This document shows, piece by piece, positions 33,836 through 61,388 of a DNA stretch of 64,000 nucleotides (position 1 is the first letter of the stretch; each line of letters opens with the position of its first letter). A program made the position numbers and the translations under genes. Below the pieces are notes generated by a model. It saw only the letters and a program-made list of their open reading frames with translations. It searched no databases and had not been told where the DNA came from. This DNA comes from a virus (lineage: Duplodnaviria; Caudoviricetes), in IMG/VR virus record IMGVR_UViG_3300020577_009814, positions 1 to 64,000 of that record; one strand, 5' to 3'.

Positions 33836-34096
33836 CTAAGTAAGTTCTAAAGATATTTGATAAGTATTTTTATCAATTATTTTTGTTTTAAAACTTACAA
33901 TAGTGCACTCTGTAAGAGTACTTTTATGAGTAGTGGGATCTATTTTTTCAATAACATACTCAAATCCAGCTCGAAGTCGGTTCCAGGAACTTAAAAGATC
34001 TTTATTAGTTTCAATAACCCCATCAGCAACCCACTCCCCAGATAAAACTAGGGAGTTAGAATTTTCATATTTTCTAAGTAGATATACTTTTACCAT
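33836..34096 (-). CDS. hypothetical protein
   Basis: ATG at 34096 overlaps the upstream stop; no motif. Confidence 0.55.
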   Translation of the reverse strand: MVKVYLLRKYENSNSLVLSGEWVADGVIETNKDLLSSWNRLRAGFEYVIEKIDPTTHKSTLTECTIVSFKTKIIDKNTYQISLELT

Positions 34097-35427
34097 GCGC
34101 CGCCGCAACACTTTTTCTTTTTCTTTCCAGAGCCACAAGGACATGGATCATTAGGACCAAGCCTGCCATAAGACTTATAGTGGCCAATACTCTCAATTTT
34201 ATCTGGTCGACCGACAATTCCTTTTCGAACATTGTCAGCTATTTGCATCCAAGCAGCTGGCCATCTATCAATATTCTTCTCTAGTAAATATTCATCAAGA
34301 ATTAATTGTCTGGCTTGAGCTTTCATAGTTGCAAGCTTCTCAGGATTGTTAATCAAAGATTCTAAAGCCTCTTCCCAAGTATTAAAACTATCTGAGCCTT
34401 GGTTGCCTACTAGTAAAGAATACCCAGGATGTTTTCTATTAAATCTTGCATAAGGTCCAACATTAGATCCAACTGGAACTGCTCCTACTGCAGACATTTC
34501 CAAGAACTTGAGTTCAGATTTAGCACAGTTAAACTGACAAGGGATCAGTGGAGCTAATCCAATATCTGCACCATGTAAAGCTGTAGGATGATCAAGAAAG
34601 TGTCTAGCTGGAACATAGGTAACTTGATCATAAGGTAAGTTAAACTTTTGAATTAGATCTTGGACATGATTAATACCTAGATTTAGGGCTAATTGAACAT
34701 TAGGATACTTCTCTAAAATCTTTTTAAGTGGGTGGCCAATCTGCTGCATATCTTCACCATGAGTAGAACCACCTGAGTACATAATTACAATCTTATCTTT
34801 CCACTCCTCAGGTTTTTGAATATCTTTTAGGGTAACAGTAGGATTACCAGCTAAATCATATTTAACATCCATTCCCCAATCTCTAAATCCAGGATCTATA
34901 TAGTTTCCTAGAATTGCAACATTTCTGTTATCCTTATAATACCATCTAGCAATTTCTGGAGTAGTTGTGGTAACTCCGTGACAAGCATACATAATCTTAG
35001 GAAGCATAGCTAATTCTGGACTTCCAGGGTGGTAAACTTGATAAGCTGGAGAGCTGGGTAAAACTGAGTGAAGATCATCATCTAATTCATAAATAATAAA
35101 CTTTCCTTCCCAGGCAGCCTGTCTCAAAGCTTCATAAACTTCTGGAGAATGCTGTCTTGGAGCCACAATAATATCATGGCTCATGAAAGAATCAAAGCTA
35201 TGAAAAGAAGAATAATTAACTTCCGCCCCATGAATCTTAAGAGAATGTAGGGGATTAATAACTCTATAGTAGCCACAAGCAGAAGTGTCTGCTACAAGGC
35301 CAAGAACCTTTAAATCCTTGTATCTATTGCTAACAACAATATCAGGCAGCTTATTCTTAGCATTAAGAATATTCTGCTTTTCTATTTGATAAAGATCTAA
35401 TTCTGGTGAAGATTCAGTAGTAACCAT
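34090..35427 (-). CDS. GT-B (GT4-like) glycosyltransferase with C-terminal SEC-C metal-binding motif
   Basis: ACGYYRV..P, ELDDDL, DIGLAPL...FNCAKSELKFLE; ends GPNDPCPCGSGKKKKKCCG. Confidence 0.85.
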   Translation of the reverse strand: MVTTESSPELDLYQIEKQNILNAKNKLPDIVVSNRYKDLKVLGLVADTSACGYYRVINPLHSLKIHGAEVNYSSFHSFDSFMSHDIIVAPRQHSPEVYEALRQAAWEGKFIIYELDDDLHSVLPSSPAYQVYHPGSPELAMLPKIMYACHGVTTTTPEIARWYYKDNRNVAILGNYIDPGFRDWGMDVKYDLAGNPTVTLKDIQKPEEWKDKIVIMYSGGSTHGEDMQQIGHPLKKILEKYPNVQLALNLGINHVQDLIQKFNLPYDQVTYVPARHFLDHPTALHGADIGLAPLIPCQFNCAKSELKFLEMSAVGAVPVGSNVGPYARFNRKHPGYSLLVGNQGSDSFNTWEEALESLINNPEKLATMKAQARQLILDEYLLEKNIDRWPAAWMQIADNVRKGIVGRPDKIESIGHYKSYGRLGPNDPCPCGSGKKKKKCCGGAW

Positions 35428-37719: not shown

Positions 37720-38418
37720 TTATTGGCCTGTAAATGATTTATATACTTGCTTAGCATAAGCTATTCTTTTTTCCATCATTGGCTTACCAGCTCTTTCCAT
37801 AGTCTTTTCAAAGAAGTTAGTGGCATCTTCAATGTCGGTCATAACTTTAATTCTATCATATACAGTTTGGCCTCCACTTTTATAAGTCTTCATCTCTTGG
37901 ACCATATACTCTAATTGAGCAACTAAGCTGTTAGGATCTAGACCTCGACTATTGGCATATTTTACTAAAGATTGCCATCTCTCTGAATAGGTCCATTGCA
38001 TAATTCCTCTACCTGGACCGCCTCCACCTTGTTTTAAAGTAGGATCTATGCTAGGTGTAGATTCTTGCATTAGGTTACCCATAATGCCTGCAGCACTTTG
38101 CGGAGTAAAGCCTAAAGCTTTAAAATAATTCCAAGTCTTTGTCTGATTATTAGAAAGCTTATCAAAGCCCTGTACAGCAGCACCTAACCCAAATGGATCT
38201 AAGGGCTTCAGGATATCTGATGCTGTGTTCAAAGCAGCACTTATATTGGAATCAGGAGGTAGACCAATTGGGATACCAATATCAAGTACAAACTTATTTG
38301 CCGCGCTCTCTTGTTGAAAAAATCTATCATCAAATGTATCTATTCCTGGAAGTGGGTTAAAACTAAATAAACCACTTCCATTAAGGTCAATCTCATTGGG
38401 ATCAAATTCAAAAGCCAT
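37720..38418 (-). CDS. phage tail lysozyme-family protein
   Basis: AAGIMGNLMQES, GRGIMQWT, AQLEY...E, F...MER, R..YA motifs. Confidence 0.9.
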   Translation of the reverse strand: MAFEFDPNEIDLNGSGLFSFNPLPGIDTFDDRFFQQESAANKFVLDIGIPIGLPPDSNISAALNTASDILKPLDPFGLGAAVQGFDKLSNNQTKTWNYFKALGFTPQSAAGIMGNLMQESTPSIDPTLKQGGGGPGRGIMQWTYSERWQSLVKYANSRGLDPNSLVAQLEYMVQEMKTYKSGGQTVYDRIKVMTDIEDATNFFEKTMERAGKPMMEKRIAYAKQVYKSFTGQ

Positions 38419-46742: not shown

Positions 46743-47486
46743 TTAGAGTAGGCCGTTTAAGGATGGATTAAAGTGACTGCGTACTTGGCCAGTTGCTTTA
46801 AAAGTTGTTGGAGGTCTTTGAGGCATAGCTACATCTCCCTGTTGTTGGGGAGTTGGTCTGCCAGCAGGATTAGTAGCTTGGATTGTAGCCATAACATCTT
46901 GACCTCTTCTACCTCTTCCACTTTGTCTTGCTAACTTCCTTTGAGCAAATGTATGAGCTAAAGGAATAGTTAAAGCCGCAGCAGCAAAAGCAAAATTATG
47001 TTGTGATAAAATAGAGGCCAACCTAGGATTACCTTCAACCAAACTATTAAATCCTTTTACAGTTTCTTCGCCCCACTTGAAGCTAGTCAAGAAAGAAGCA
47101 AAAGATTGCATTGCTTTAGCTCCTCCATTGTCAACTGCCACTTTAGCAGCTAAGCCAGCAGCCCCAGCAATACTATTAGTTAAGATAGCTGAACTTGTTG
47201 TTTGCCCTCTTCTAGTATCAGCTGCCACGCCCATTGCAATTGAAGCTCCAAAATATGTCTTAGTTCCATTACCTCTAATAGAACCTGCCATCCCAGCTAA
47301 TCCTGCACCTACTTGCGCTAATAGATATTCATCTCCATGGGAACCTTTTCTTCTTCTAGAAACTCTACCTCTATGCTGGCCAGAATGTTTCAATTTAGTT
47401 CCTGCAATCATTAGTGCAACAGCGGCAATTCCAGCACTAGTTACAGCTTTATTTCTAGATAGTATACTTCCAATAATATTATCCAT
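46743..47486 (-). CDS. Ala/Gly-rich membrane-associated protein
   Basis: Several hydrophobic Ala/Gly stretches separated by basic clusters. Confidence 0.6.
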   Translation of the reverse strand: MDNIIGSILSRNKAVTSAGIAAVALMIAGTKLKHSGQHRGRVSRRRKGSHGDEYLLAQVGAGLAGMAGSIRGNGTKTYFGASIAMGVAADTRRGQTTSSAILTNSIAGAAGLAAKVAVDNGGAKAMQSFASFLTSFKWGEETVKGFNSLVEGNPRLASILSQHNFAFAAAALTIPLAHTFAQRKLARQSGRGRRGQDVMATIQATNPAGRPTPQQQGDVAMPQRPPTTFKATGQVRSHFNPSLNGLL

Positions 47487-50400
47487 TATAGATTTCTTCT
47501 AAGAACATCTCTAGCAGTAATGCCTAAATCTTTTTGTCTTTTATCTTGAATAAAAGTATCTTGATTGGTTATTTCCATTTTCTGAGATACAGCATTGTAG
47601 GTTTCTCTGAGCAGGAATTCTTGTTGTTTTTTATCTTTGACAAAACCCTTAAAAGATATATTCAACATAAAGGGTGTAATTTCACCATACCAAATTCTCT
47701 GGCCACCTTCTGGATTACCTGGAATCTCTGAGTTTTTAGCTACACTATTTTTTAAATTATTAGATAATCTACCCTGCCGCAATTCAGGTTCTGCAGGATT
47801 GTGGGCAGCCATTAAGGCAGCTATTCCACCTAAAGCAGCCATTGGAGGCACCACTTTTGAAATAGCTTTCATCATAGCAGCAGTATGAATAGCCTCCCTC
47901 TCAGTACCTAAGAAAGTAGATGGGGCACTTTGGCCAGCTGCATTTACACCTCTATGCAACTGTTCTGGAATAACTTCTTTTCCAACAGCCTGGAATCCAG
48001 CTTTAGTAGCTTCAGTTACAGCCTCATGGGCATCTTTAATTCCAGTACCTTTCAAAATATTATTAAGAGTCTCAGGATAGTTACCCTTAAAAGGATTATC
48101 ATCAGCCCAGGTTTGCTCATGTAAAGTATCTACTAATCTATCTATTAGAGCTTTACCATCTGCAACATCTCTAGGCAACAGGCCTTTTGCCTCTAGCCCA
48201 TTAACATCGCTATAGATATTATTAGCCCAATGGATGGCTTTTCTAACTTCATGGGGAGTTAGTTGAGCCAGCATTTCAACATGTTGAAAGTTAGCTTGGG
48301 TTCGCATTGACTCTAAAACTTCTGGATCCTTCAGATGATTATAGATTAATTGCGTAGCTTCTTCTGGAGAGAAGTTTTTCATACCTCTAAGTGATTCAAT
48401 AAGTGGGCCTACTTCTCCACCGTTATCTTGAAGTCCAGTAATCAATGCATTTTTAAATAGATTTGACTTTTGAAGCATTCTTAGCCCTTCTGCAATCTCT
48501 TGATTGGGAGAAGTTTCATGAATGATTCCTTGCATTTCTGTTTTCCACAAATTTAAATCTTTTCCCAGCTTACGGTCATTAGAATGTTGCCGCATTAAGC
48601 CCATAAAGTTTTCATACTTAGCTTGTCCCATCTGACCATGAGCTTCTTGAAAACCAGCTAATAAAGCCCTATTAGCTGGACCTATATTATCTTCTTCTAG
48701 TACTGCATAAGTTGCAACTTCTCCAGCTAAAGTAGCTAATTGAACAGGCATCTTTACACCCATATCTGAATTTAGCTGAATACTTACTCTAGCCCGATCT
48801 CCAAATCCTACAGAAATTCTAGGAGCATCAAACTTATGGGCCCCTGTAAATCCAGCTTTCTCTAGAAGCATTTGATGGATAGCTGAATAGCCTAAAGTTA
48901 AGCTATTCATTCTAGCTATAGGATCTTTAGACTCATAAACTGTGCCCATCATTTTGCCAAAAACTGAATTAGCTACTTGGCTATATAAACCTTGTTGAAG
49001 ATCTCCTGCATATTGGCTATTTGTAGCCATAGTTTCAATCTCATGGGAGAACAAAGTTTTGAGTCTAGGTAAAGCTGGTCCATAAGTAATTTTAGGAGCT
49101 ATCTGGTCATCAAAAAGTTCTTCAGCTATTCTCTTTGCTTCAGCAGCCCTTACAAAAATATCTGTTTCAGAGCCTAATTGAGCTTCAATTTCATCAAAAT
49201 GTTGGATTGCCCGATGCCTAGCTCCAGCAATAAGATAGTGTCCAGAAGTACCTTCGGCTGCAAGTTCATAGCTTCCTGGAAGTTTTCCAGTTGCATCCCT
49301 AAATGTTTTAGTTAAAGGATTAAATTGTCGTACTTGACGGGCTTGTCTTTCATAAGTAGCACTATCAAATACTTCTTTATTAAAGCTATCATCTAAAGAT
49401 CTACCAGCCATAGCTCTTATAGTTCTAGGATCAGATTCAACTATTGAATGAGTTCCAGGAGTGTAGCCAATAGCTTTGCCTTCTGCGTCAAAGATAGGTG
49501 TTTGATGTTCAAATACAGCTCTAGTTATTATTCTCCCATCATCAAGGTGATCTGTAGAACCAACTAACCTTGAGACTCCTCCATAATGTGGACTCATACT
49601 ATAGTTATCATAAATATAGCCTGTACCATAATTAGTAGTTTGGAGGCCTTCAATATTAGCAGCAATGGCTGCTCTGTGTTGTTTTAAAATCTTAATTCCA
49701 AAGTTAACGTCATCTACAGCAGAGTGAGCACCTCTGGTTAGATAGCTTCCAGATTGAAGTGCTAAGTTATCAAGTGCAACTGAACCTTCTAATCCAGCAA
49801 CTTGAAGAAGCACAGTCTGATCTAAATAGTTCTGATCAGCAGCGTTGAGGATTTCAATAGTTTCAAACATATCAATTCCTCTATTCTGAAGATCTCTAGC
49901 TGTAGCCAACATGACTTCTAAGTCAACTCCAGTTTGACTCATGATAATTTTGCCCTTAATACTTTTAGCAAAGGATCTTAAAAATTCAGCCTGTTGTTGA
50001 GGTTCATAGTGACCTTTCTTAATAGCAGATACTATTTCTCCAGCACTAAAAGAACCGGTTACTTTTCTAGCACCTAATTCTGTAATAGTTCTAAAGCCTG
50101 TTTCTGCATTAGTAGTAAATTCTGTATCAAATGAGATTCCACCTTCCTTAAGAAATCTTTGAGCTAATTCAATTTGATGATCAACTCCACTATGAAAGTC
50201 TGTAGCAATTGGAACTTCTTTTCCAATAGATTTTAAATGTGCAAATGCAAGTTGCCCAGCCTCTTTACCTTTCTTGGCTGCAGATATATATTGTTCTTGA
50301 ACATCAACCCTCTTAACTAAAGTAGATTCTTGGGTTAGAGCCATTGAATCTATATTAGATTTATATCTAAAATCCACCGATGGGTGGGCCAAAATATCTT

Positions 50401-52309
50401 TTTCAATTACATAATCTTGAGGAGCAAAAGCTAACTTCTCATCTGCAAGATTATAAACCCCACCTTTATCAAACTTTTTAATAGTATTTGGATTAGAAGT
50501 TTGGAATACTTTCAAGGAGGCATACTCAGCCTGGAGACCTTCTCTAGAATATCCTCCAGCTTTTAAAGCTTCTTCAATTTCTTGAGCTGATCTTGCAATA
50601 AGTACTTTCTCATAATTATTTTCAAGATGGGCCATATAAAACTTTTGATTTCCAGATTTTAAAGGTTGAGTTGAGGTGTCAAGAAAAGTACTTCTACTAG
50701 TTTCAGTCTTATAAACTGCAAGGCCCCCAGAAGTAACTTTGCCTAGTCTTCCTGGAGTAGCAAAATCATCAAGCAGTCTTTTCATATGTTGAGACTCTAG
50801 GCCTTCAACATGGGCTTTAGTTTGAGCTAATACATCATCTAAATTTAAAATTGCTTTTCCAATTTGAGGATTTGATTGGAGTTCTTTTATTTTAGCATAG
50901 TCAGCTCCACGCATAGCTATATACTGATTTTCTTTACCCATCTTTTTGAGAAAAGACTTTCTCAAATCAGCATCTACTCTAGAAGAGACCTTTCTAACTC
51001 CCTTACCTGTTCCTAGAGAATATTCAACTTCATTAGTTCCTACCAATTCATCAAAAAAAGTAGTAGGGTCCATGACTATTAAATCTGAATCAAAGGCCCC
51101 TTTTTGGGCAGCTTGGTTAAAAGCAGTTAGATCTCTCTTAATACCCATTCGACCCCATGGCTGCTCAGTTTTAGCAGTCTGTTTGCTATAGGTATTTCTA
51201 GCCCAAGAGTAGATACTTTTATCATTATTTATGACTTTACTAATCCATCGGTGGACTGTAGGATCAGGATGATCAATTAAGTGATTAAACAATCCTCTAA
51301 GATTGCTATCAATTTTACCAGATTCATTTAATCTTTTAATACTTTTAATCATTCTTTGATTAAAAGAGGCTCTGGCAAAGGTTGCATTGGCTTTATTATC
51401 TCCAGTTCTAGCTACATCAAGTAATCCTGGCACGCCTGAAGTTGTTCCTAAAACCCGTTCAACCATTCTAGAAACTTCAGAGTCAGAAGTTCCAGGAGCT
51501 GAGGTTATCCCAGCTACAAAATCTTCCATGCCTCTATGTTCAATTTCTTTTTGGAACTTAATTGGATTCTTTATAATCCTATCAATTAACCTATTTTCTT
51601 GCCAAGTAGGATCAAAATCTTCACCTCTCTTTCCTATTTGTCTTTCTAGAAGTTTATAATCTTGACCTTGGTTACCTGTAAAAAGTCCTCTTAGTTCAGG
51701 GGCACCCATAGTGCCCATAGGTCCATTTCCCACACTACTTTTAGCCGCAGAAAATATCGCATTATGAAGCTCTTCAGCAAAAGTCTCTAAATGTTCAGGC
51801 TGATAAGATCCATCTGTATTCAATTCAGAAATAACTTCTAAAATAGTTTCTTTACTAGGAACAGCTGGCCCAGGTACGGTCAAGGCTTTAGCTATAGTCA
51901 TAACCTTTTCAGGCATAGTATCTTTAGTATTCCCAACTAAGTTAATAAGGTCTCTTAGAAGATTTGAAGTATTTGGTACATCTGATGTATCTGATACTAA
52001 TTCGTTTAAGATTTTTTTATTACCTTGTAAAGCTTCAGTAAGATTACTAATAACTTTATTAGAAACTTGTTCCGGAGTTAATTGATCATAATTATTTTTA
52101 ATATGTAAAAATTCTTGCTCAAATTGAACTAAAGATTCAATATGGAATTGAGACAGTTTTTGAGTGTACAGGTTAATCATAAAAGCTGTAACACCCAAGC
52201 CTTCAGCTAGAGTAATAACTGACTGAAGAATGTAGTCAGCTCTGGATTTATTTTCTCTGAAGGTGGATCCAATATGATTTGAAAGCCCTCCGAGATGATG
52301 AATAGCCAT
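47486..52309 (-). CDS. large helical virion/ejection-type protein with DEDDh 3'-5' exonuclease-like domain
   Basis: SFDTE (Exo I), VDLE/LDQ (Exo II region), AHSAVDD (Exo III); hydrophobic segments near both ends. Confidence 0.6.
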   Translation of the reverse strand: MAIHHLGGLSNHIGSTFRENKSRADYILQSVITLAEGLGVTAFMINLYTQKLSQFHIESLVQFEQEFLHIKNNYDQLTPEQVSNKVISNLTEALQGNKKILNELVSDTSDVPNTSNLLRDLINLVGNTKDTMPEKVMTIAKALTVPGPAVPSKETILEVISELNTDGSYQPEHLETFAEELHNAIFSAAKSSVGNGPMGTMGAPELRGLFTGNQGQDYKLLERQIGKRGEDFDPTWQENRLIDRIIKNPIKFQKEIEHRGMEDFVAGITSAPGTSDSEVSRMVERVLGTTSGVPGLLDVARTGDNKANATFARASFNQRMIKSIKRLNESGKIDSNLRGLFNHLIDHPDPTVHRWISKVINNDKSIYSWARNTYSKQTAKTEQPWGRMGIKRDLTAFNQAAQKGAFDSDLIVMDPTTFFDELVGTNEVEYSLGTGKGVRKVSSRVDADLRKSFLKKMGKENQYIAMRGADYAKIKELQSNPQIGKAILNLDDVLAQTKAHVEGLESQHMKRLLDDFATPGRLGKVTSGGLAVYKTETSRSTFLDTSTQPLKSGNQKFYMAHLENNYEKVLIARSAQEIEEALKAGGYSREGLQAEYASLKVFQTSNPNTIKKFDKGGVYNLADEKLAFAPQDYVIEKDILAHPSVDFRYKSNIDSMALTQESTLVKRVDVQEQYISAAKKGKEAGQLAFAHLKSIGKEVPIATDFHSGVDHQIELAQRFLKEGGISFDTEFTTNAETGFRTITELGARKVTGSFSAGEIVSAIKKGHYEPQQQAEFLRSFAKSIKGKIIMSQTGVDLEVMLATARDLQNRGIDMFETIEILNAADQNYLDQTVLLQVAGLEGSVALDNLALQSGSYLTRGAHSAVDDVNFGIKILKQHRAAIAANIEGLQTTNYGTGYIYDNYSMSPHYGGVSRLVGSTDHLDDGRIITRAVFEHQTPIFDAEGKAIGYTPGTHSIVESDPRTIRAMAGRSLDDSFNKEVFDSATYERQARQVRQFNPLTKTFRDATGKLPGSYELAAEGTSGHYLIAGARHRAIQHFDEIEAQLGSETDIFVRAAEAKRIAEELFDDQIAPKITYGPALPRLKTLFSHEIETMATNSQYAGDLQQGLYSQVANSVFGKMMGTVYESKDPIARMNSLTLGYSAIHQMLLEKAGFTGAHKFDAPRISVGFGDRARVSIQLNSDMGVKMPVQLATLAGEVATYAVLEEDNIGPANRALLAGFQEAHGQMGQAKYENFMGLMRQHSNDRKLGKDLNLWKTEMQGIIHETSPNQEIAEGLRMLQKSNLFKNALITGLQDNGGEVGPLIESLRGMKNFSPEEATQLIYNHLKDPEVLESMRTQANFQHVEMLAQLTPHEVRKAIHWANNIYSDVNGLEAKGLLPRDVADGKALIDRLVDTLHEQTWADDNPFKGNYPETLNNILKGTGIKDAHEAVTEATKAGFQAVGKEVIPEQLHRGVNAAGQSAPSTFLGTEREAIHTAAMMKAISKVVPPMAALGGIAALMAAHNPAEPELRQGRLSNNLKNSVAKNSEIPGNPEGGQRIWYGEITPFMLNISFKGFVKDKKQQEFLLRETYNAVSQKMEITNQDTFIQDKRQKDLGITARDVLRRNL

Positions 52310-52342
52310 ATTTTAGATGTACTCAAGTAGAGTCAATAAACT

Positions 52343-52367
52343 AAAAAGCCCCTACATTTGTAGGGGC
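52343..52367 (-). terminator. Rho-independent terminator
   Basis: Minus strand GCCCCTACAAATGTAGGGGC followed by TTTTT, just downstream of 52394..52702. Confidence 0.85.
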
Positions 52368-52393
52368 CCAGTTAACTAACTAACAAACAAAAT

Positions 52394-52702
52394 TTATGCT
52401 TCAGGCTCAGTCGGTAGAGCTTCTCTAACTGAGTCTTGCTTTTTAACAAAATCTCGAACTCTTTCAATAGCTGCCTTTTCTCTGAGCTCTGCAATCTTTG
52501 CAGCTTTTCTACCTTTATTTCTAGTAGGAGCAGAATACCCTCCATTAGTAGCTAAAATAAAAGTCATCTTCATTTTATCAAGATTCTTAAGTTGCTTTTC
52601 ATAGAATTCTTGATCAATCAATTTCTTTTCTAGCTGATCTTTTAAAGCTTCCAGATCTTTTGTAAGATCAATCATACCTCGATTAATATTGCCGTACTTC
52701 AT
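52394..52702 (-). CDS. small basic coiled-coil hypothetical protein
   Basis: AAGG immediately upstream of ATG, followed by a terminator. Confidence 0.65.
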   Translation of the reverse strand: MKYGNINRGMIDLTKDLEALKDQLEKKLIDQEFYEKQLKNLDKMKMTFILATNGGYSAPTRNKGRKAAKIAELREKAAIERVRDFVKKQDSVREALPTEPEA

Positions 52703-52741
52703 CCTTATCTATCTATCTATACTCTCTTTTAGAAATAAATA

Positions 52742-55700
52742 TTACATACTTCTTCTAATTTTTTCCATTAATTGAGGAGTTTGGTCCTCAAATAAATCCA
52801 TATCAACATTTACACTGCTATAATCACTAGGTGTAAAGGAAGCTTCAGCTGTTACTCCATGTAAACCTCCATCTCTAATGATACTTTGAATTCTAGCATT
52901 AACCCAAGCATAGGTTGGATGATCCATTCTTGGAATTGGAACATCTCCAGTGTAAGCTCTAGCCTTTTCAATTCTAGATCTGGTAGGCCTTTCTATAATT
53001 AATTCCTCATTAGCTGCAGCTCGAGCCTTAAGATCTTCATCATTTGTTCTTGCATTCCAGCCTTGCCAATTAGAATCAGGTAAATAGTGTTGTTTAAAAT
53101 AAGCTGTTAAATTTGGTTTATTAGGTACTTCATCTGCATTTAAGAATTTACCTAAAACTCTCTTCTCCGAATCCGGAAGCATGTTATAAAACTTTCTCTT
53201 CTCTGACAGAGAGCCAGTATTAATTATTTCTTCCGCAATCTGTTGATGTCTTCCTGGAATTACAGAAAGAGCACTCTGTAGGCTACCAGTGTTCTCATCG
53301 TAGCCGTACATGGTATTTCTTGCCTTCCTGTTGGCCCATACAGCCATTGTGCCCCAAGGTCCCAGTGCAACAGCCTCTCGGTCATCAGAGCTCTCCAGTG
53401 CATCAATATCCGTACCTTCTTCTTTCTTAGCTTTATGCTTAGCAGCTTCAGCAATGGTACTATATTTTACAAATTCTAGAGTGTCCCAGTACTCATCAAA
53501 TTCAGTTTGCTTATTGTACCTAGACGGAGTCCAAGTCTTACCTGTAAATAAATCAAAAGCTTTAGCAGCTAATGAAGCAGTTAGGCCAACTATAGCTCCT
53601 GTACCAGAGCCAACCAATTTGCCTTTAGTAGTTCCAAAGAATAGGGAAGCTATAAAAGCAGTCTGCAGAGAGGCAGTAATTGGATTTTTATGGGCCATTG
53701 AGCTTATTGTCGGCTCAATAATAGTTCCAATTGGATCATTCCAATCTGCATGATCAATTCCATAAACTTCTCCTCTTTCAAATTGTTCCAGGGGTGAACG
53801 TACTCTGAGGAACTTATTTGAGATTATATTATCACTATGTAAAAGCTTCTCAGCCATCTTGCCCATAAAAGAATCTCCATAGAGAACTTTATAGGCTAGG
53901 GGATTTTTAGCATCAAGATCTGGATGACCTATTCCAGCTTTAATTAGTTTTCTATTCGCATTTCCAATTATAACATCTGTAGAAGTATCAGCCATTGTGT
54001 CTGGATTAAATTGACCTTCTACAAAGGTCATATTAGTCATTCTTCCTGGAACAATTCCATATTTAGCTAATACCGACTCAGGGTCCTCATTAATAAAGGC
54101 TTGTTTGTCAAACTTAACTCCAGCAAGTTTAACCGTACCCATCTCAGTTATGATCTCTCCATTGGGTCCAATATCTTCAATAAATAGACTTTGGGACTCA
54201 GTAGGAACCCCATATCTATATGGATAGGTCCTAGAAGTTTGGCTTAGTCTCTTAGCTCTTCTTTTGGCTTCTTCAAATCTATCTTTTTCAAATCCACCAA
54301 ATCCTCCAGATTCTTCTGCAAATTGAACAGCTTTTCGATACTCAGGTGAGCCAGGTGCAACCTTAGAAAGAATATCAATCCTAGTTAAGAGATCATAAGT
54401 TTCATATGGAGAAATAGTTCCTTTTTCTACCATTTGATTGACAGCAGCTCTAGCCCGATCAATTCGATCTGTAATTCCTCTCCATCTTGCTGGATCAAAA
54501 GCATAGTTTTCTACTCTGATCTGAGAAGGGTCATCTCTGTTAACAAATACTAAGTGACCCTGTTTAATCCCAGTAATAGCCATGTATGCTGTAATTTGAT
54601 CAATATATTTTTCAGGAGTAGTTCCCCAAGATTTAGAGCCTTGGGTTTTAATATCTAAAAGCTCATAGCCATTAGGACCTCTGGTGATAGCATCAATTGT
54701 ACCTGAGATATTATGTTCTTCATCATAAACTGAAGTTTCAGCTCCAACTAGAATACCATACTTACTCATTTGCCTTTGGATATTAAGGTGGACTGTTGAG
54801 TTGCCGGTATAGAAAACTTTTCCTTTTCTTCTAGCACACCAAGTTGCATTTTTAACGGTTGGGCACCACACTGTGCCTTTATAAAATTTTTTAGTAACTT
54901 TTTCTCTAATTCTTCTAAAGCCTAACAGTTCTCTATCTGGAAAGGATAGTATGTATTCTTTAGCAATTCGCTCATTGTCTTTATATCTATAAATCCATTC
55001 ACTTTCATATCTATTAATGCTTTTACCTAATAATAAACAGGCTAGCTCAATAGCTTTTAATCTATTAGGATCTGATTGGCCGATTGTGTAAGATCGCTTC
55101 CCATCAGCTTTAATTGATGTTTCAATAAAAATATTAAGTTGAGCCTCAGTTAGGCTATAAATAAAATCTAGTGAAATAATTTTATTGGGAGCTAACTCAA
55201 TAATACTTTTTGATGCATGTACATTTAATCTGAATGTTGCTTTTTCCAGGTCTTGATCATATTCTGCCCACATTGCAAGTTTATTAGGATTAGCAATTTT
55301 CATATTTGGTGTTTGTGGTCCAAATAAATTTTCTAATATAGCTCTAATTTCTTCAACATACGGCATGTTAACTTTTTTAGATTGGCATATTGAGATCAAT
55401 CCATTTTGTGTTGCGCCCTCTGTCCAATACCAAGCCAATAGTTTTACAAAGTCATCTGAGTACGTTTCCATAGTAGGAAAATCAGAATATTTTGCACTTA
55501 GTATAATATGATTTAAAGCAGACGTAAGTTTATCTGATGTGGTCCATTCTCGTTCCCACCTTTCAGGGAAGCTCTCTCCAAGATTATTTGTCCTTTTTTG
55601 GTACTGCTTTATTACAGGCCATTTATGATTTGGAGTAGTTAAAGAAGAATGATATTGAGTCTCAATAGAGATAAGATCTCTTCCACCAACCCAATATTTA

Positions 55701-58700
55701 TTAATATACTCAATAGGATGCCATTCAGTAAGGCCGGTCTCATGGTTTAAAGTTAAAATTAAATCTCCTTCTTTAAATTGACCTAAAACTTTCCAACCTT
55801 CTTTAGTGAGAATTTCTGTTTCAGTATCTACACATCCAAATGCTACAATATCATCTGCATCGGCTCCATCCAAAGGCTCCATTGGGTTGAGCCATTTTCT
55901 AATAAGCTCTTCTTCAGAGTAGCCTACTGAAGAACCTCTTACCCTAAGATTTTTAACCCAAGGATTGGCTCTTTCATATGCTGGCCCAGGTAAGTTTAAT
56001 TCCCCAATTCCAGGGGTTCTAAGGTATGGGTTACCTGTAGCAAACTTATCACCCATCCAGCCAGGCATGTTATTAGTTAATTGACTTGGAGCATCTAAAG
56101 CTTGATTGTCTGCTCCTACAAATCTCCTAAAGAATTCCCCAATATTTAAGGTACCTAATTCACCATAGTCTCCAAGGAACATTGTTCTCCTGAAGGAATG
56201 GCCTGCATTAGGATCTTGATTGTTAAAGTGATTACCATCTCCAGGATATCCAGGAAGTCTAGAAATAGCAGCCCCATATAAGCCGCTCATTCTTTTTAGG
56301 GCTCTAATTGGAGCTTTTACAAAAGCCAGTGGGTCAAAGCCATTTGCATCAATATAGCCTCTATTGTAGCCAATTGAAATAGCATCTCCACCACCTCCAC
56401 CAATTAGGTGTTCTCCAGGAATATGAACTCCTGCTGGTCCCCCAACTCCTCTGCCTCCACCCCCACCTTGAGAGCCAGTTCCACCATGCAAAGATTCATA
56501 AGAACCAAATTGCATGTTATCTCCACCCCCACCTAGGGAAGTAGGTAAGCCAAATCCAAATTCTCCAATTGAAGTATATCCTCCAGCTCCCCCTGAGTTA
56601 ATTGTAAGGGAGTTAGGATTGTCTATCAATCTTCTTTTTGATTTTGCATTTTGATTATAAGGTGATTCAGGGTCCCAAGAATCAGATAGATCATCATCCA
56701 TCCAATGAGACTTCCATCTTCTATAGAATGAAGGTCTTACATATTTAATTCTTCCACCAGTAGCTGGTGATCTTGAACCAAAGAACCAAAGTCTGCCTTC
56801 TCTAACTTCTTCTTCACCATAATAAAGATGATCTCTATACTCATCTTCTGATCTAGGTGAGAAGTATTGATCTAATCCAGGAATTCTATTAACCAAAGAT
56901 TGATTAAATTCAGTCATCCCAGCAAGATCTTTTAATCTTGCTCCTAGTAGATTTACATTAGCAAATAGATTTGCACCAAGATCATCAATTCCATTTAAGC
57001 CAGCTGCATGAAGTCCATGGTTTAGGCCTCGGTAAGCATAATGAGCTCCTACTATTGGTAGAATTCTCTTGCCATAGAAACTTGCAACAGTTCTTAAAGT
57101 AGTAACTCTATCTTGAGCTGTTAATCCCAAGCCTACTTTCTCAGCTATCTCTTGCGGCATTGAAGCAAGAATCTGAATGGTGCTAGCTAAGGGTCCTAAA
57201 GGTCTAGAAGGATCAATTAAACTACTAAAGAATTCTTTAGCTCCAAATCCATCTAAAGCAGTGTGGGCAAAAGTACCTAAAGGATCATTAATAAAATCTT
57301 GAAGGCCTGGGCCTGTACTTAAAGTAGCATGCCAAGAGGAAGAATTTAATGGATCCATAGCTTCCATTTCTGGAGTCCAAGGATGGCCAAATCTAAATCT
57401 ATCTTGAAGAACTCCAGTTAAATGGGCATCATTAGCCATTTGAGCTAACAAAGCATTTTTTCTAGAGGTATTAATGTCTAAAGAATCAACAGCTAGAGCA
57501 TATTGCTCGGTAATTTTAGCTCTACCAAAAACATCTGTTTTTGCTATTCCAAGAAGTCTTTTTTGTTCATTAAGAGCAATGGCTAACTCACCCATTTTTC
57601 TTTCATGAATAACATCCTTAGTAGTTATCACCCCGCCTATTTCAGAGGATTCTTGGTGGACAACACTATGAATCATATCAACTATCTCACTAGTTTGATA
57701 GCCAGTTCTAGACCCTATGCCAAGTTTCTTACCTAATTCAGTGCCTTTCAACAAAGATATTAGATTGTCTTCTTTACCATCTCCAGTAATAGCTCCTCTA
57801 GCTGCTAGTAAAAGTTTTTCTAAAGGTTCTTTACCGCCAAGATCATCAATAGATGTTTGAGCTAAGTATTCACCTAGCAAACCTTTTTGGAAATTCCCCA
57901 TGGCTTTTCCAATATTGGATTTTCCAAACCATTTATTCTTGAATACTGCAGCAGCCCCACCTTCTTTTCCAGAGACTCCATAGAGTAGTCCAACATCATC
58001 ACTAACAGATGTAAATGCCCTAAAGAGATGAGGTTGGAGTTTTCTATTCATCCCGCCAAACAATTCACTATCAATTAAAGCATGATCTGGAATTTTACCA
58101 TCTTTAAGAGCTTCTCCAATTAAATCATGGATAGCTGGCAAATGCCCTGCTTGAAGGTACTCTGCAAAAGCTTCTGGATCCTCGCTTAATTTAAGCAACG
58201 GGTTAAGCCATTTTCCTCTAGCAGAACTCATATTAAGAGTTTTTAAGAAACCCATTGAGTTAGGTGCTGAGGCTGCTTGATGAATTATATGCTGTAAAGC
58301 ATGCCCAAGTAAAGCTGGGTTAGCTGATTCTCCTTCTGCAAGGTTTGCCCAATTGTTGTCTTTTAAGAGATAGGCTAATAGCTGACCAGGAGGAAGTTTT
58401 TCTACATCCACTTTTCCTAGGTTGGAGCCATAAAGTCTATTTAAAAATGGTTTAGCTGCTTTAGTTGAGTTAATACCAAAGGAACTTTGATGAGGATTAT
58501 ATACAACTTCCCCAAGGCTATCAATATTATTATAAGCTAAAGTATCAAACCAAGCATGCCCTGCATTAGGTTTGAAGTGCATTGCATCATCTAAAGTGTA
58601 CTCGGCAGTTGAGCTTCTAACATCTCTAAGTCTTCTAGCTGCACCTGAAGAATGAATACCTTTAGTTCTTGTTGCTGATACTCGGTACTTATTGGAGTGA

Positions 58701-60073
58701 TCAACTAATTCCCCTCCCGAAAGAGTAAGTAATCTATCGCCTAAAGCTAAAGCTTGGGTTTGAGTATCTTTAGCATAGAGTTGGCCTAGTTCTCTATGGC
58801 GCATCAATTCTGGAAGCTCAGTAAGCATTCCTAAACGCTTTACAGTTTGAGCATCTGGCTTTGCAAATTTAAAAATTCCAACTGGAACATCCATCAATCC
58901 AGGAAAAATTGGGATTTGTAAACCTAGCCCTGAATCTGAAGTTATATACTCAGATAACCCTTTTCTAATATTAGATTGTTGGGTAAGATTAACAACTTTC
59001 CCTTCTCTAGTTACAATATAACCACTTCTAGATTGCCGCCATCTAGCAAGAACTCTATCTAGTTCTGGATGAGTCTGGCCAACTCCTTCCACGGTAGGTG
59101 AAAAGAGCTTCTCCATATCTCCTTTAATAGAGTTTAAAGCTTCTTCGAGATGGCTATCTCCAGTTGTATTACTTTGTCTAGTACTACCTAAATAGTGTTC
59201 TAGTTGTTTGTAAATTGGCCCTTGTTTATCTTTAGCTGCTTTTTCAAGATCTCCAATTGTGAGTTCTTTAGATTTAGGATAAAACAGTCTTCTAGACAGA
59301 TCAGTTTTCTCCTTCATTGCATCCATGTGCCCAATCATGGCATTAGCAATGGTTTCAGCATTTTGACCAGTATGAATGGCTGCATTAATGCCTGGTCTGT
59401 GGGGCTGAATTGGGCCTACATGATCTCTAAGAATATTACTAAAAATATCTCTTTGATTCTCTGCAAACCCTGGCTTAAAAGTAATACCCAGCTCTTCGGC
59501 TGTAGCTCTAAACTGAGCCATAGCACTAGAGGTTGTAATTTTTCTAAAGTCTGATACCTCTTGGGCTTTACCTACAAAGCCTAATCTACCAGCTAAGATC
59601 CTTCTAGCTGTAGACCCTTCACTTAAATCTCCACTTAGTACATGCCCATCTACCAAGGCATCCATGAATGCCGAAGTTCTGGCTCTAGCTACTGAAGCAG
59701 ATGCAAAGACAGTCTGAATACCCTCAGCTACTTCTGATCCGGCTATAGCTTCGCTATCTAAGGTGGGCATAAATGCATTTCTAGCATTTTGGTTTTTTCC
59801 ACCAAGTTGGAACATTCTTCTAATGAAGTTCCCCTCTGAAGACCTAGGTTTAAGAGCTTCACCTCTATCAAAGAAATCTGCAATTTGGGATGCACCTTCA
59901 ATGGCATCTGCAAATTTACTTACAAATCTTTCAGACCCAGCAGCTAAAAAAGAACCTAGATAAGGCTTAGCTACAATTCCAGCAGTAACAATTGCCCCAA
60001 GTTTTGCAAGGCCAAAAGCTTTACTTACAAAACCATCTTTATCTCGATGATAGGGACTGCCAAAAAGATGCAT
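52742..60073 (-). CDS. tape-measure-like protein with intein, PD-(D/E)xK nuclease domain and degenerate SNase-like domain
   Basis: Follows tail tube and chaperone genes; long helical protein with hydrophobic segments; G^STVH...GTIDAI...LLDIKT...QITAY nuclease motifs. Confidence 0.7.
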   Translation of the reverse strand: MHLFGSPYHRDKDGFVSKAFGLAKLGAIVTAGIVAKPYLGSFLAAGSERFVSKFADAIEGASQIADFFDRGEALKPRSSEGNFIRRMFQLGGKNQNARNAFMPTLDSEAIAGSEVAEGIQTVFASASVARARTSAFMDALVDGHVLSGDLSEGSTARRILAGRLGFVGKAQEVSDFRKITTSSAMAQFRATAEELGITFKPGFAENQRDIFSNILRDHVGPIQPHRPGINAAIHTGQNAETIANAMIGHMDAMKEKTDLSRRLFYPKSKELTIGDLEKAAKDKQGPIYKQLEHYLGSTRQSNTTGDSHLEEALNSIKGDMEKLFSPTVEGVGQTHPELDRVLARWRQSRSGYIVTREGKVVNLTQQSNIRKGLSEYITSDSGLGLQIPIFPGLMDVPVGIFKFAKPDAQTVKRLGMLTELPELMRHRELGQLYAKDTQTQALALGDRLLTLSGGELVDHSNKYRVSATRTKGIHSSGAARRLRDVRSSTAEYTLDDAMHFKPNAGHAWFDTLAYNNIDSLGEVVYNPHQSSFGINSTKAAKPFLNRLYGSNLGKVDVEKLPPGQLLAYLLKDNNWANLAEGESANPALLGHALQHIIHQAASAPNSMGFLKTLNMSSARGKWLNPLLKLSEDPEAFAEYLQAGHLPAIHDLIGEALKDGKIPDHALIDSELFGGMNRKLQPHLFRAFTSVSDDVGLLYGVSGKEGGAAAVFKNKWFGKSNIGKAMGNFQKGLLGEYLAQTSIDDLGGKEPLEKLLLAARGAITGDGKEDNLISLLKGTELGKKLGIGSRTGYQTSEIVDMIHSVVHQESSEIGGVITTKDVIHERKMGELAIALNEQKRLLGIAKTDVFGRAKITEQYALAVDSLDINTSRKNALLAQMANDAHLTGVLQDRFRFGHPWTPEMEAMDPLNSSSWHATLSTGPGLQDFINDPLGTFAHTALDGFGAKEFFSSLIDPSRPLGPLASTIQILASMPQEIAEKVGLGLTAQDRVTTLRTVASFYGKRILPIVGAHYAYRGLNHGLHAAGLNGIDDLGANLFANVNLLGARLKDLAGMTEFNQSLVNRIPGLDQYFSPRSEDEYRDHLYYGEEEVREGRLWFFGSRSPATGGRIKYVRPSFYRRWKSHWMDDDLSDSWDPESPYNQNAKSKRRLIDNPNSLTINSGGAGGYTSIGEFGFGLPTSLGGGGDNMQFGSYESLHGGTGSQGGGGGRGVGGPAGVHIPGEHLIGGGGGDAISIGYNRGYIDANGFDPLAFVKAPIRALKRMSGLYGAAISRLPGYPGDGNHFNNQDPNAGHSFRRTMFLGDYGELGTLNIGEFFRRFVGADNQALDAPSQLTNNMPGWMGDKFATGNPYLRTPGIGELNLPGPAYERANPWVKNLRVRGSSVGYSEEELIRKWLNPMEPLDGADADDIVAFGCVDTETEILTKEGWKVLGQFKEGDLILTLNHETGLTEWHPIEYINKYWVGGRDLISIETQYHSSLTTPNHKWPVIKQYQKRTNNLGESFPERWEREWTTSDKLTSALNHIILSAKYSDFPTMETYSDDFVKLLAWYWTEGATQNGLISICQSKKVNMPYVEEIRAILENLFGPQTPNMKIANPNKLAMWAEYDQDLEKATFRLNVHASKSIIELAPNKIISLDFIYSLTEAQLNIFIETSIKADGKRSYTIGQSDPNRLKAIELACLLLGKSINRYESEWIYRYKDNERIAKEYILSFPDRELLGFRRIREKVTKKFYKGTVWCPTVKNATWCARRKGKVFYTGNSTVHLNIQRQMSKYGILVGAETSVYDEEHNISGTIDAITRGPNGYELLDIKTQGSKSWGTTPEKYIDQITAYMAITGIKQGHLVFVNRDDPSQIRVENYAFDPARWRGITDRIDRARAAVNQMVEKGTISPYETYDLLTRIDILSKVAPGSPEYRKAVQFAEESGGFGGFEKDRFEEAKRRAKRLSQTSRTYPYRYGVPTESQSLFIEDIGPNGEIITEMGTVKLAGVKFDKQAFINEDPESVLAKYGIVPGRMTNMTFVEGQFNPDTMADTSTDVIIGNANRKLIKAGIGHPDLDAKNPLAYKVLYGDSFMGKMAEKLLHSDNIISNKFLRVRSPLEQFERGEVYGIDHADWNDPIGTIIEPTISSMAHKNPITASLQTAFIASLFFGTTKGKLVGSGTGAIVGLTASLAAKAFDLFTGKTWTPSRYNKQTEFDEYWDTLEFVKYSTIAEAAKHKAKKEEGTDIDALESSDDREAVALGPWGTMAVWANRKARNTMYGYDENTGSLQSALSVIPGRHQQIAEEIINTGSLSEKRKFYNMLPDSEKRVLGKFLNADEVPNKPNLTAYFKQHYLPDSNWQGWNARTNDEDLKARAAANEELIIERPTRSRIEKARAYTGDVPIPRMDHPTYAWVNARIQSIIRDGGLHGVTAEASFTPSDYSSVNVDMDLFEDQTPQLMEKIRRSM
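54800..55834 (-). mobile_element. intein (345 aa) with LAGLIDADG-type homing endonuclease
   Basis: Begins CVDTETEILTKEGW, block B TPNHKW, LAWYWTEG and IETSIKADG motifs, ends VWCPTV...VFYTGN followed by Ser(+1). Confidence 0.93.
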
Positions 60074-60693
60074 CAGAATTCAGGATCTAAAATAATCTCA
60101 CCAGGTTGAGGAGCAATTTCAATAGTTTGGCCTTGCTTCCATTCAAAAGTAGTTCTAGACTGTTTAGCAACATCTCTACCTAGGGCATCTTGAGCAATAA
60201 CAGTTTCACTAGTAGATGTTCTAGAAGAACCAGTATTAATTCCAAAAGCTTCTTCAATGGGAATTTTATACATATTCTCAAATTGATATTTACCCATTAG
60301 TAGATACTTAGCATAGTTAGTAGGACAACAGTTATCTAATTGTTCTAAAGTTAACCCAGAGATCATTGAAACAGCAGCTGCCTCTAAAGCTCCAGTTTCA
60401 CTACTAATCCAATCTGCTGCAATTGTAAAAGTTAAAGACTCTTCGGTCAAACCTGAGATTTTATAGATCTCTGCAAGTAGAGTATTAGTAACTCCAGCAA
60501 GCATATTCTCCCAATCATATTCACCCAAAACAGAGCAGCTGAGAATGTACTCCTCAGCTGCAAACTTATCAGATTTAGTGCCTGCTATTCTTAATTCTTT
60601 AGTAGTAATTCCTCTGAAAATGTAATAACATTCTTTAAGTTTGTTATCAATTGCTTTTAACTTAAACCATCTAAAATTAGGATCCAGTTGCAC
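60073..60693 (-). CDS. putative tail assembly chaperone
   Basis: YIFRGITTKE...CSVL...LAG....L..EI..ISG pattern; GTG start with AAGGTG upstream; immediately before tape-measure-like gene. Confidence 0.65.
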   Translation of the reverse strand: MQLDPNFRWFKLKAIDNKLKECYYIFRGITTKELRIAGTKSDKFAAEEYILSCSVLGEYDWENMLAGVTNTLLAEIYKISGLTEESLTFTIAADWISSETGALEAAAVSMISGLTLEQLDNCCPTNYAKYLLMGKYQFENMYKIPIEEAFGINTGSSRTSTSETVIAQDALGRDVAKQSRTTFEWKQGQTIEIAPQPGEIILDPEF

Positions 60694-60704
60694 ATTAATT
60701 CACC

Positions 60705-61388
60705 TTAGAGTTCTTCAACATCTGTTTCCGAGGCCCAACCAGAAATTCTATTTGCGGTTTCTGAAAGTTTAACTACAACTCCCGTAGGAAGTAGATTCCA
60801 GTCAATTTCTTTTGGCCACATTGTAACACTTTTAACTAAAGATAAAACATCATCATCAGCTGTAGCAGCCAATTTAAGATCAATTCTAGTCATTGGTCTA
60901 AGTGCAAAAACCCATCTTCCAACTCTAACTCTAAAAAGCTGGAAAGAACTTTCACTCTTTAAGGTCTCAGTATCAGCTTCAGAGATATCACCCCAATAAG
61001 CAAAATCATTTAAGACACTGACATGGAGATCAGGACCTAAGGGATTACCTAAAATATCAACTTCAATAAAGCCAGATTTCTCTTGAATATCTTTGACAAT
61101 TGTAGGAATTGCTCCAACAACTAAATTCTCAATCTCCTCTTCAGAAAGAATGGGCCAAAGCACACATTGCTTAAAGAGTAGTTCATTTACTTCCTTAACT
61201 GGAAGTGAGCGGCCATGTTGTTCACTATCTGCTGCAAGATGTCTAATTTTGGCTAATAGATCATAATCAATTTGCTTGAAAACAGCTTCATCTTTCTTAT
61301 CTCCACTAGTCCATTTAAAGAGTGGAATGCTATAAGCAGCCTTTAACTCTTTGATTGTATCTTCACTAACTTTACCTTTTTTAAGCAT
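60705..61388 (-). CDS. putative tail assembly chaperone with two tandem domains
   Basis: Two related halves: VFKQI...CVLWP...GAIPTI...I..KSGF and ALRPM...VTMWP...GVVVKL...ANRISGW. Confidence 0.65.
   Translation of the reverse strand: MLKKGKVSEDTIKELKAAYSIPLFKWTSGDKKDEAVFKQIDYDLLAKIRHLAADSEQHGRSLPVKEVNELLFKQCVLWPILSEEEIENLVVGAIPTIVKDIQEKSGFIEVDILGNPLGPDLHVSVLNDFAYWGDISEADTETLKSESSFQLFRVRVGRWVFALRPMTRIDLKLAATADDDVLSLVKSVTMWPKEIDWNLLPTGVVVKLSETANRISGWASETDVEEL

Follow-up and report, generated by a model that had tools for sequence, protein, structure and literature searches.

What kind of protein fills the tape-measure position of a contractile phage tail, and why should such proteins contain nuclease folds? 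The question is raised by a 64,000-nucleotide stretch of DNA from a tailed virus (Duplodnaviria; Caudoviricetes), hereafter the window, which comprises bases 1-64000 of IMG/VR record IMGVR_UViG_3300020577_009814, a linear record of 94.7 kb estimated to be 66% complete. At positions 46743-60073, between two chaperone-like genes and the gene for a hub protein, the window encodes three proteins, P0001 (2443 residues), P0002 (1607 residues) and P0003 (247 residues), for which an original prediction, made from the letters of the sequence, had proposed injection with the genome and a set of embedded endo- and exonucleases. We find a PD-(D/E)xK nuclease fold in P0001 and a DEDDh exonuclease fold in P0002, each with catalytic motifs conserved among distant relatives, in a block of proteins that are almost devoid of cysteine. 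On balance we favour the view that this is the tail-lumen (tape-measure-slot) block of a myovirus resembling Bacillus phage 0305phi8-36, and that proteins expelled from the tail at infection carry accessory nucleases.

The anatomy of the locus provides the framework for this view. Every long open reading frame (ORF) of the window lies on the minus strand. Genes for the portal, the major head protein and the tail sheath come first in transcription order, beyond the window; within it follow proteins of 519 residues (tube-like), 304, 227 and 206 residues, then P0001, a protein of 102 residues, P0002, P0003 and P0004, and downstream of P0004 a 232-residue tail lysozyme, a spike-like protein, a baseplate-J-like protein and, further on, a GroEL homologue. 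Genes gp137-gp151 of 0305phi8-36 follow the same order, and the synteny confirms that the block is the tape-measure slot of a myovirus. The 519-residue protein matches phrog_9206; we take it to be tube-like by its position, because the 0305phi8-36 record labels the tail-tube genes gp140 and gp141 ‘major head protein'. Upstream the block is bordered by the two chaperone-like genes (60073-61388, minus strand; 227 and 206 residues), whose position is conserved in relatives, and the C-terminal part of the 227-residue protein resembles the N-terminal part of the 206-residue protein (E 0.004). The accessible part of PMC2147016 describes the same relation for gp143 and gp144 of 0305phi8-36, a two-gene tail chaperone, and in addition assigns gp146 as the tape measure from tail length and gp147 as a hub of the T4 gp27/P2 gpD type. 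The downstream border is P0004 (38418-46742, minus strand; 2774 residues), a hub of the gp147/T4 gp27 type that matches phrog_20474 (E 7e-92) and gp147 itself (BLASTP E 2e-24). The block thus lies where a tape-measure gene is expected, between the chaperones and the hub and baseplate genes.

Within these borders P0001 (52742-60073), P0002 (47486-52309) and P0003 (46743-47486), all on the minus strand, are present with the lengths originally given. The inventory was incomplete, however, as a basic ORF of 102 residues (52394-52702, minus strand) lies between P0001 and P0002; it lacks cysteine, and its position is conserved in relatives, five of which have ORFs of ~100-120 residues there. P0003, which is rich in alanine and glycine and contains no cysteine, is likewise conserved in five relatives. 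The claim that three proteins stand at the tape-measure position holds for the block as a whole by synteny, but only P0002 fills the slot of gp146. P0001 is of the gp145 type and stands one gene upstream of that slot; P0004, the giant gene that comes next, encodes the hub. Indeed, P0001 matches gp145 of 0305phi8-36 in three collinear segments (best BLASTP E 7e-47), and the GenBank record lists gp145 as a component of the virion, detected by mass spectrometry. A word-based search with P0001 retrieved 56 proteins including the window's own cluster, and thus 55 homologues, from contigs of up to 245 kb. Most are 2030-2110 residues long, the length of P0001 without an insert of 345 residues.

This insert is an intein, and it interrupts the nuclease region. 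It spans residues 1414-1758 of P0001 (54800-55834, minus strand), starts with Cys1414 in CVDTETE, ends with Asn1758 in YTGN, and is followed by Ser1759 as the +1 residue; it also contains a TPNH segment that we take to be block B and two segments that we read as LAGLIDADG-like motifs. Its removal is predicted to leave a protein of 2098 residues. The insert falls between the G and the S of nuclease motif I and is absent from precisely this point in homologues without an intein, and five homologues have an intein at the same site. A Pfam scan of the segment matched no family; tblastn matched it to inteins of actinophages, in terminase, portal and other genes (E 1e-44 to 2e-49). Precise insertion, terminal residues, nucleophile and homology together identify the segment as an intein, which is predicted to splice. 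Intein-size inserts occur at four conserved sites of the P0001 family, near residues 1136, 1345 (before TGDPY), 1414 (motif I) and 2084 (before SNKFLRVR) in P0001 numbering, and one homologue, P0024 (L011:3716-13252; 3178 residues), holds three of them at once. This distribution agrees with the original suggestion that the position of the intein hints at an important motif.

On either side of the intein lie the two parts of the nuclease region. The N-extein part (residues ~1330-1413; 55835-56086, minus strand) contains the conserved stretch NPxxNxMPxWLP..GDPY..GE.xLPG..YE and ends in FG immediately before motif I; the C-extein part of the PD-(D/E)xK domain (residues 1759-1900; 54374-54799, minus strand) matches PHROG families of Cas4-like and RecE-like exonucleases (PHROG 1706, 434 and 1990) across residues 1761-1890, with E values from 2e-14 to 4e-6. 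The motif residues are H1762, E1779, D1794, D1807-x-K1809 and Q1826-xxx-Y1830. D1794 and D1807-I-K1809, the D...(D/E)-x-K signature, stand on consecutive beta strands (strands 153-162 and 168-176 of the model described below). Read across the intein junction, motif I becomes FG|S-T-V-H1762, which we take to be the motif I helix (G-x-x-x-H), and we likewise take the last motif to be the QxxxY motif of such nucleases. In an alignment of 56 sequences the motifs FG-S-x-x-H, G-A-E, I-(D/E)-A, E-x-x-(D/E)-x-K-T and D-Q-x-x-x-Y occur in 41 of the 55 homologues (P0006-P0044, P0047 and P0048). All 41 retain the lysine, motif II is D or E, and the histidine is replaced, by N, in a single case (P0016); in an alignment of 23 sequences H1762, E1779, K1809, Q1826 and Y1830 are invariant. 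The histidine, glutamate, aspartate, DxK and QxxxY motifs are all kept in gp145, which has an insertion of ~70 residues within its nuclease domain. Of the remaining 14 homologues, P0046 has a degenerate PD-(D/E)xK core, and in the other 13 (P0045 and P0049-P0060) the core is absent, only the upstream NPxxNxMPxWLP..GDPY..GE.xLPG..YE stretch being kept.

The fold was modelled on P0015, a natural homologue without an intein that is encoded at one of the related loci (L005) and is 50% identical to the C-extein of the window. The AlphaFold2 (AF2) model of its residues 1257-2063, with a mean predicted local distance difference test score (pLDDT) of 81.5 and a predicted template modelling score (pTM) of 0.73, has a restriction-endonuclease-like fold, and Foldseek matched it to 24 PDB structures at E <= 0.001. 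The leading matches were Cas4 SSO0001 (4ic1, E 1.1e-4), MGME1, lambda exonuclease, alkaline exonuclease and a phage-related exonuclease, and RecE followed at E 2.8e-3. Among viral models (BFVD) the best matches were large proteins, led by A7KUR9_2 at E 1e-41; the fourth (E 3.8e-18) is named ‘Large polyvalent protein associated domain-containing protein', and further neighbours are phage Cas4, PD-(D/E)xK and YqaJ proteins. Matches to Pfam were subthreshold: PDDEXK_1 (PF12705) scored 18.4 bits with the C-extein and 20.2 bits with P0015, both below the gathering cut-off of 22 bits, and a YqaJ match was also below its cut-off. A single-sequence search of the PDB with the region gave only Cas4 4ic1 at E 0.95, and a full-length sequence profile of the P0001 family matched no solved structure significantly. 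Neither residues 1330-1413 nor residues 1759-1900 include a cysteine, so that the four-cysteine iron-sulfur (Fe-S) cluster of Cas4 is absent. The original description of this domain as RecB/Cas4-like and without Fe-S cysteines is therefore borne out by family matches, motifs, fold and cysteine content alike.

Two further regions of P0001 lie upstream of the nuclease. Residues 915-1119 (window 56713-57328) form a strongly conserved region, PGLD.YF.PRS..EY..YL.YGE..VR.GR.W..GSR.P..GG...Y.RPNFYRRWKSHW, which is common to residues 483-678 of gp145 and for which neither a Pfam family nor, in a profile search, a solved structure was matched. Between it and the nuclease region runs a glycine-rich, low-complexity stretch with GGGG and GGGGG runs (window 56368-56590; residues ~1162-1235), and the family consensus is also glycine-rich there.

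The second nuclease fold is embedded in P0002, which contains no cysteine and is encoded where 0305phi8-36 has its tape-measure gene. Its DEDDh 3'-5' exonuclease-like domain covers residues ~720-890 (49640-50152, minus strand), with D728, E730, D796, H862 and D867 as the five catalytic positions. A profile of the region retrieved 54 proteins among 1.84 billion representative proteins, 50 of them at E <= 1e-10, and all were giant proteins of the P0002 family; no ordinary exonuclease appeared at E <= 0.001. Fragments aside, these relatives are ~1470-1830 residues long and have the domain at a similar position. After removal of two short fragments (P0106 and P0110), 48 of the remaining 52 were found to keep all five residues, that is, the D-x-E of Exo I, the D of Exo II and the H-x4-D of Exo III, at only ~14-25% identity to P0002. 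In P0066, P0067 and P0071 all but the first of the five are lost together; P0107 has other residues at the last two positions. The lineage with the dead site, P0066 and P0067 (L009:13520-18226 and L010:13520-18238) and also P0071, retains the domain and the rest of the protein. In both domains, then, the catalytic residues are conserved among homologues, the point on which the original prediction had staked itself beforehand.

An AF2 model of P0002 residues 670-960, built from a 50-sequence alignment (pLDDT 87.1, pTM 0.82), has an RNase H-like exonuclease fold, and the five residues lie on its first strand and at the starts of helices, as expected for that fold. Foldseek gave six PDB matches at E <= 0.001, comprising REXO2, oligoribonucleases (Orn) and RNase T; among the matches listed (the top 50) are further oligoribonucleases, ERI, the epsilon subunit of DNA polymerase III (DnaQ epsilon), Caf1 and Nibbler. 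The DEDDh domain originally claimed for P0002 thus stands on residues, model and structural matches. Searches by sequence were less productive. The Pfam family RNase_T (PF00929) scored 13.3 bits (E 0.13), below its gathering cut-off of 24 bits, and at E <= 0.01 neither P0001 nor P0002 matched any Pfam family. A profile of the domain matched no solved structure significantly, a single-sequence search of the PDB with this piece returned nothing, and a full-length profile of the P0002 family gave only weak matches to designed helical bundles in its C-terminal third. A word-based homologue search with P0002 recovered only its own cluster, and a look-up in the Atlas gave no lead. P0002 homologues from the related loci described below are only 17-20% identical overall. 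No similarity between P0002 and gp146 was detected (best E 0.52), and the DEDDh profile found nothing in a six-frame translation of the 0305phi8-36 tail region; tape-measure proteins are described in the accessible part of PMC2147016 as diverging beyond recognition.

Two other features proposed for these proteins did not survive. The staphylococcal nuclease (SNase)-like domain corresponds to a small beta-rich domain of P0001 (residues ~1958-2051; 53921-54202, minus strand) that is visible in the DSSP assignment of the P0015 model. None of the Foldseek matches listed (the 50 best, for a multidomain model in which this domain was not searched alone) was an SNase (PF00565), a profile of eight sequences found nothing relevant in the PDB, none of the eight (0/8) matched the family in Pfam at E <= 10, and the Atlas gave no lead. 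At the positions that we take to correspond to the acidic residues of SNase, the eight sequences vary. The membrane helices proposed for all three proteins fared little better: the best 19-residue hydropathy windows, at 1.51, 1.66 and 1.62, were reached by 168, 111 and 33 of 200 shuffled sequences. The candidate segments are rich in alanine and glycine, and some are conserved in position.

A property that unites the block is its lack of cysteine. P0001 without its intein (2098 residues), the 102-residue protein, P0002 and P0003 together comprise 4054 residues and not one cysteine, where 26.7 would be expected from the other 47 ORFs of the window (109 cysteines in 16,567 residues; P(0) ~2e-12); the five cysteines of P0001 all lie within the intein. 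The same holds across the families. The 46 members of the P0001 family that have no intein-size insert contain three cysteines in 96,402 residues, with none in 43 of them, and the 54 proteins of the P0002 family contain seven in 82,999, with none in 48. In 0305phi8-36, gp145 (1930 residues) and gp146 (2537 residues) have no cysteine, whereas there are 1-3 in the sheath proteins, 2-3 in the chaperones and 10 in the hub gp147; the hub of the window, P0004, has 11. Because the avoidance is common to the four proteins and to the assigned tape measure gp146, we take it as evidence that they would share the fate of a tape measure. One possible reason for it would be unfolded passage through the tail tube and an oxidizing envelope. 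This cysteine avoidance of the P0001 extein, the 102-residue protein, P0002 and P0003 is new here, and a literature search on cysteine-free tape-measure proteins returned nothing relevant. Near-total avoidance is, in addition, a simple sequence signature that could help to find other tail-threaded proteins.

The arrangement is not peculiar to the window. An alignment-based scan of viral contigs identified nine related loci on contigs of 53-235 kb, two of which (L006 and L007) have identical ORF layouts; a third (L008), as far as its contig reaches, matches L010. In all nine the order is two chaperone-sized genes, a protein of ~2060 residues (3178 in L011), one of ~100, one of ~1470-1650, one of ~240 and one of more than 1000. 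A scan of viral contigs with a single protein found no such loci, megablast of the region against phage records gave no match, and a scan of one genome per prokaryotic species revealed no prophage copies. Given the chaperone-to-hub slot in the window and at all nine related loci, the proteins belong, as had been proposed, to the structural module and are not replication enzymes; the homology of P0001 to gp145 points the same way.

Most relatives have an extra gene of 362-384 residues between the P0001 homologue and the small ORF (L006:12133-13275, with the same slot filled in L003, L004, L007, L009, L010 and L011, and incompletely in L008), which is absent from the window (52703-52741) and from L005. 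Two copies were scanned against Pfam: that of L006 matched Metallophos (calcineurin-like phosphoesterase) with 23.3 bits (cut-off 21.5), and that of L009 scored 20.7 bits; a search of the PDB with this gene found nothing. Unlike its neighbours the protein contains 4-5 cysteines, and because of these it may not share their fate.

Fourteen of the 55 P0001 homologues have no intact PD-(D/E)xK core (it is absent in 13 and degenerate in one), one lineage has given up the DEDDh site, and extra genes are tolerated in the block. For these reasons the nuclease domains look like accessory payloads, not components that the tail requires.

From tail assembly onward, the scheme that we favour, with its lumen location, ejection, nuclease activity and target, is one that we infer. 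P0001 would be made as a precursor from which the LAGLIDADG intein splices itself out, rebuilding motif I of the PD-(D/E)xK domain, and P0002, a tape-measure protein by position, would carry the embedded DEDDh exonuclease domain. The two chaperone-like proteins would help to build P0001, the 102-residue protein, P0002 and P0003 onto the hub P0004 inside the tail tube. Contraction of the sheath would then expel the proteins of the block ahead of or together with the DNA, and they would cross the envelope largely unfolded. After refolding in the host, the nuclease domains would act on nucleic acid before any phage gene is expressed. A bolder form of this scheme, which we regard as rather doubtful, holds that the jumbo myoviruses of this lineage pre-load two nucleases of opposite polarity in cysteine-free, tube-threaded proteins as a first strike that enters before phage gene expression, directed at the nucleic acid of the host or a competitor or, through the oligoribonuclease-like DEDDh domain, at nucleotide-based defence signals. 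If this were true, the cysteine-free signature would mark a general class of tail-threaded phage proteins.

It should be emphasized, however, that several points weigh against the tail-lumen reading. Folded nuclease domains of 20-25 kDa do not obviously fit the lumen of a tail tube, and would have to be stored unfolded or at one end of the tube. Cysteine avoidance may have other causes, and we know of no established rule that links it to ejection. The one argument for a tape-measure role of P0002 is its position, since similarity to gp146 was not detectable. Membrane insertion is unsupported, as the hydrophobic segments do not exceed chance. Both Pfam nuclease matches lie under the curated cut-offs, the Foldseek E values are modest at ~1e-4 for both domains, sequence profiles of the DEDDh domain and of the P0001 and P0002 families matched no solved nuclease, and the PD-(D/E)xK model is that of a homologue ~50% identical, P0015, rather than of the spliced protein of the window. 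Finally, the phage is known only from metagenomes, and delivery and activity are at present predictions. Apart from the SNase-like domain and the membrane helices, the finding itself is real, and its interpretation as an injected nuclease system is plausible as a prediction.

It could be argued that the two enzymes serve the phage genome itself. Entering with the DNA, a PD-(D/E)xK nuclease that resects 5'-3' and a DEDDh nuclease that works 3'-5' would trim terminally redundant ends for annealing, circularization or the formation of concatemers. The pairing of opposite polarities is what such processing would need, lambda exonuclease, RecE and recombination exonucleases of the YqaJ type are among the structural neighbours, and a terminal repeat of 0305phi8-36 is mentioned in the accessible part of PMC2147016. 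Loss of an essential step would not be expected, but the PD-(D/E)xK core is gone or degenerate in 14 of 55 homologues and the DEDDh site is dead in three of 52 relatives; furthermore, no DEDDh domain could be detected in the tail region of 0305phi8-36, and the record, which is linear and ~66% complete, does not reveal the genome ends. The accessory pattern fits payloads for conflict with the host better than essential genome processing, and end processing is for that reason ranked second, as an unlikely explanation. Slightly less likely again is that the proteins, despite the place of their genes in the tail module, travel in the capsid and are injected from there along with the DNA, as P1 Dar, T4 Alt and the N4 virion RNA polymerase are. 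Large, multidomain proteins delivered by the virion are an established concept (PMC5512222, accessible part), and the fourth BFVD neighbour of the P0015 model (E 3.8e-18) bears a polyvalent-associated name. The genes, however, lie between the tail chaperones and the hub and not beside portal or MuF-like genes, the cysteine-free signature is held in common with the assigned tape measure gp146, and Pfam detects no polyvalent-protein-associated domain in P0001 or P0002. The accessible text of PMC5512222, moreover, does not contain the term ‘tape measure' and states that no other DNase domains accompany the ParB DNases of polyvalent proteins.

The remaining explanations deny the proteins either activity or a place in the virion. 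That the nuclease folds are structural relics, scaffolds for tail assembly or length without a catalytic role, appears improbable. Some lineages have indeed lost catalytic residues or the entire PD-(D/E)xK core and kept the protein, and the nuclease activity of both domains is a prediction from fold and motifs. Relics would not, however, be expected to retain the five DEDDh residues in 48 of 52 sequences at only 14-25% overall identity, or PD-(D/E)xK catalytic columns that are invariant in 23 sequences, and the joint loss of the DEDDh residues in the three exceptions is the pattern expected of an abandoned active site. Phage Cas4-like and DnaQ-like nucleases are usually products of replication or recombination genes, and the proteins might accordingly be non-structural enzymes encoded in the late region by chance; this we consider very improbable indeed. 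In proteins of 1600-2400 residues the nuclease is a minor internal domain, the slot is fixed at all nine related loci, the homologue gp145 is found in virions, and the DEDDh profile matches only giant proteins of the family among the 1.84 billion representatives. The tail-lumen reading accordingly remains the one that we prefer.

Other genes of the structural region merit brief mention. The tail lysozyme (PF18013, E 7e-35) is encoded at 37720-38418 by its own 232-residue gene downstream of the hub and contains no cysteine; neither the hub nor the proteins of the tape-measure slot include it as a domain. A GroEL-type chaperonin lies inside the structural region at 29117-30751 (phrog_5725, E 8e-143, full length). 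Among the baseplate genes, a protein of 445 residues (34090-35427) has a PHROG match to a glycosyltransferase (E 4e-32) and is comparatively rich in cysteine, with eight.

The closest known relative of the system is 0305phi8-36, with which it shares the gene order from chaperone pair to hub, the correspondence of P0001 to gp145 and of P0004 to gp147, and the lack of cysteine in gp145 and gp146 as in P0001 and P0002. The two differ in that identity is ~25%, gp145 has no intein and carries the ~70-residue insertion in its nuclease domain, gp146 is not detectably similar to P0002, no DEDDh domain was detected in the tail region, and no separate gene like that for P0003 lies between gp146 and gp147. 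No function is given for gp145 in the GenBank record or the accessible part of PMC2147016, which mention no nuclease for it, and the jumbo phage BpSp proteome paper contains nothing on gp145. The idea can be tested directly, since 0305phi8-36 is in culture and its gp145, which is on record as a protein of the virion, retains the PD-(D/E)xK motifs.

Enzymes delivered by the virion are well known, among them the N4 RNA polymerase, T4 Alt, P1 Dar and the polyvalent proteins. The tape-measure protein pb2 of phage T5 is also reported to have an embedded enzymatic domain. Likewise, Tmp of mycobacteriophage TM4 has a peptidoglycan-hydrolase motif (PMC1796659, accessible part). The window resembles these tape measures in that an enzyme domain is embedded in a giant tape-measure-slot protein that, here by prediction, leaves the tail at infection; the known domains act on peptidoglycan, whereas here the folds are those of nucleases, and a gene of its own encodes the tail lysozyme. 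According to the accessible part of PMC5512222, polyvalent proteins are very large, multidomain, predicted to be delivered with the DNA and predicted to be active in the first moments of infection. Size, multidomain architecture, location among virion genes, predicted delivery and a domain content that varies between relatives are common to them and to the block, but the phage examples described there are tied to a head and portal/MuF context and have ParB-like DNases, in contrast with the tail context here, and neither ‘Cas4' nor ‘tape measure' occurs in that text. The nuclease domains themselves have the fold and catalytic motifs of Cas4, RecB, MGME1 and lambda exonuclease, and of DnaQ, RNase T and oligoribonuclease, and differ from these enzymes in being embedded in giant structural proteins, lacking an Fe-S cluster and falling below Pfam cut-offs. 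The literature searched, in the parts accessible, contained no report of nuclease folds in the tape-measure-slot proteins of a contractile tail.

Polyvalent proteins are thus the nearest concept and tape-measure hydrolase motifs the nearest anatomical parallel; the nearest functional parallel is provided by extracellular contractile injection systems that load effectors in the lumen of the tube, such as the metamorphosis-associated contractile (MAC) structures with Mif1 (PMC6748791, accessible part) and with a nuclease effector (bioRxiv 10.1101/543298, accessible part). As is predicted here, a contractile tail-like machine delivers a pre-made protein or nuclease from its lumen into a target cell. 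The MAC systems, as described in the accessible parts of these sources, are headless bacterial particles aimed at eukaryotic cells and carry separate effectors, whereas here a phage serves as the machine and the nucleases form part of the predicted lumen proteins themselves. If the nucleases are active and delivered, phages could act on host nucleic acid at the very moment of entry, in parallel with the loading of effectors by contractile injection systems.

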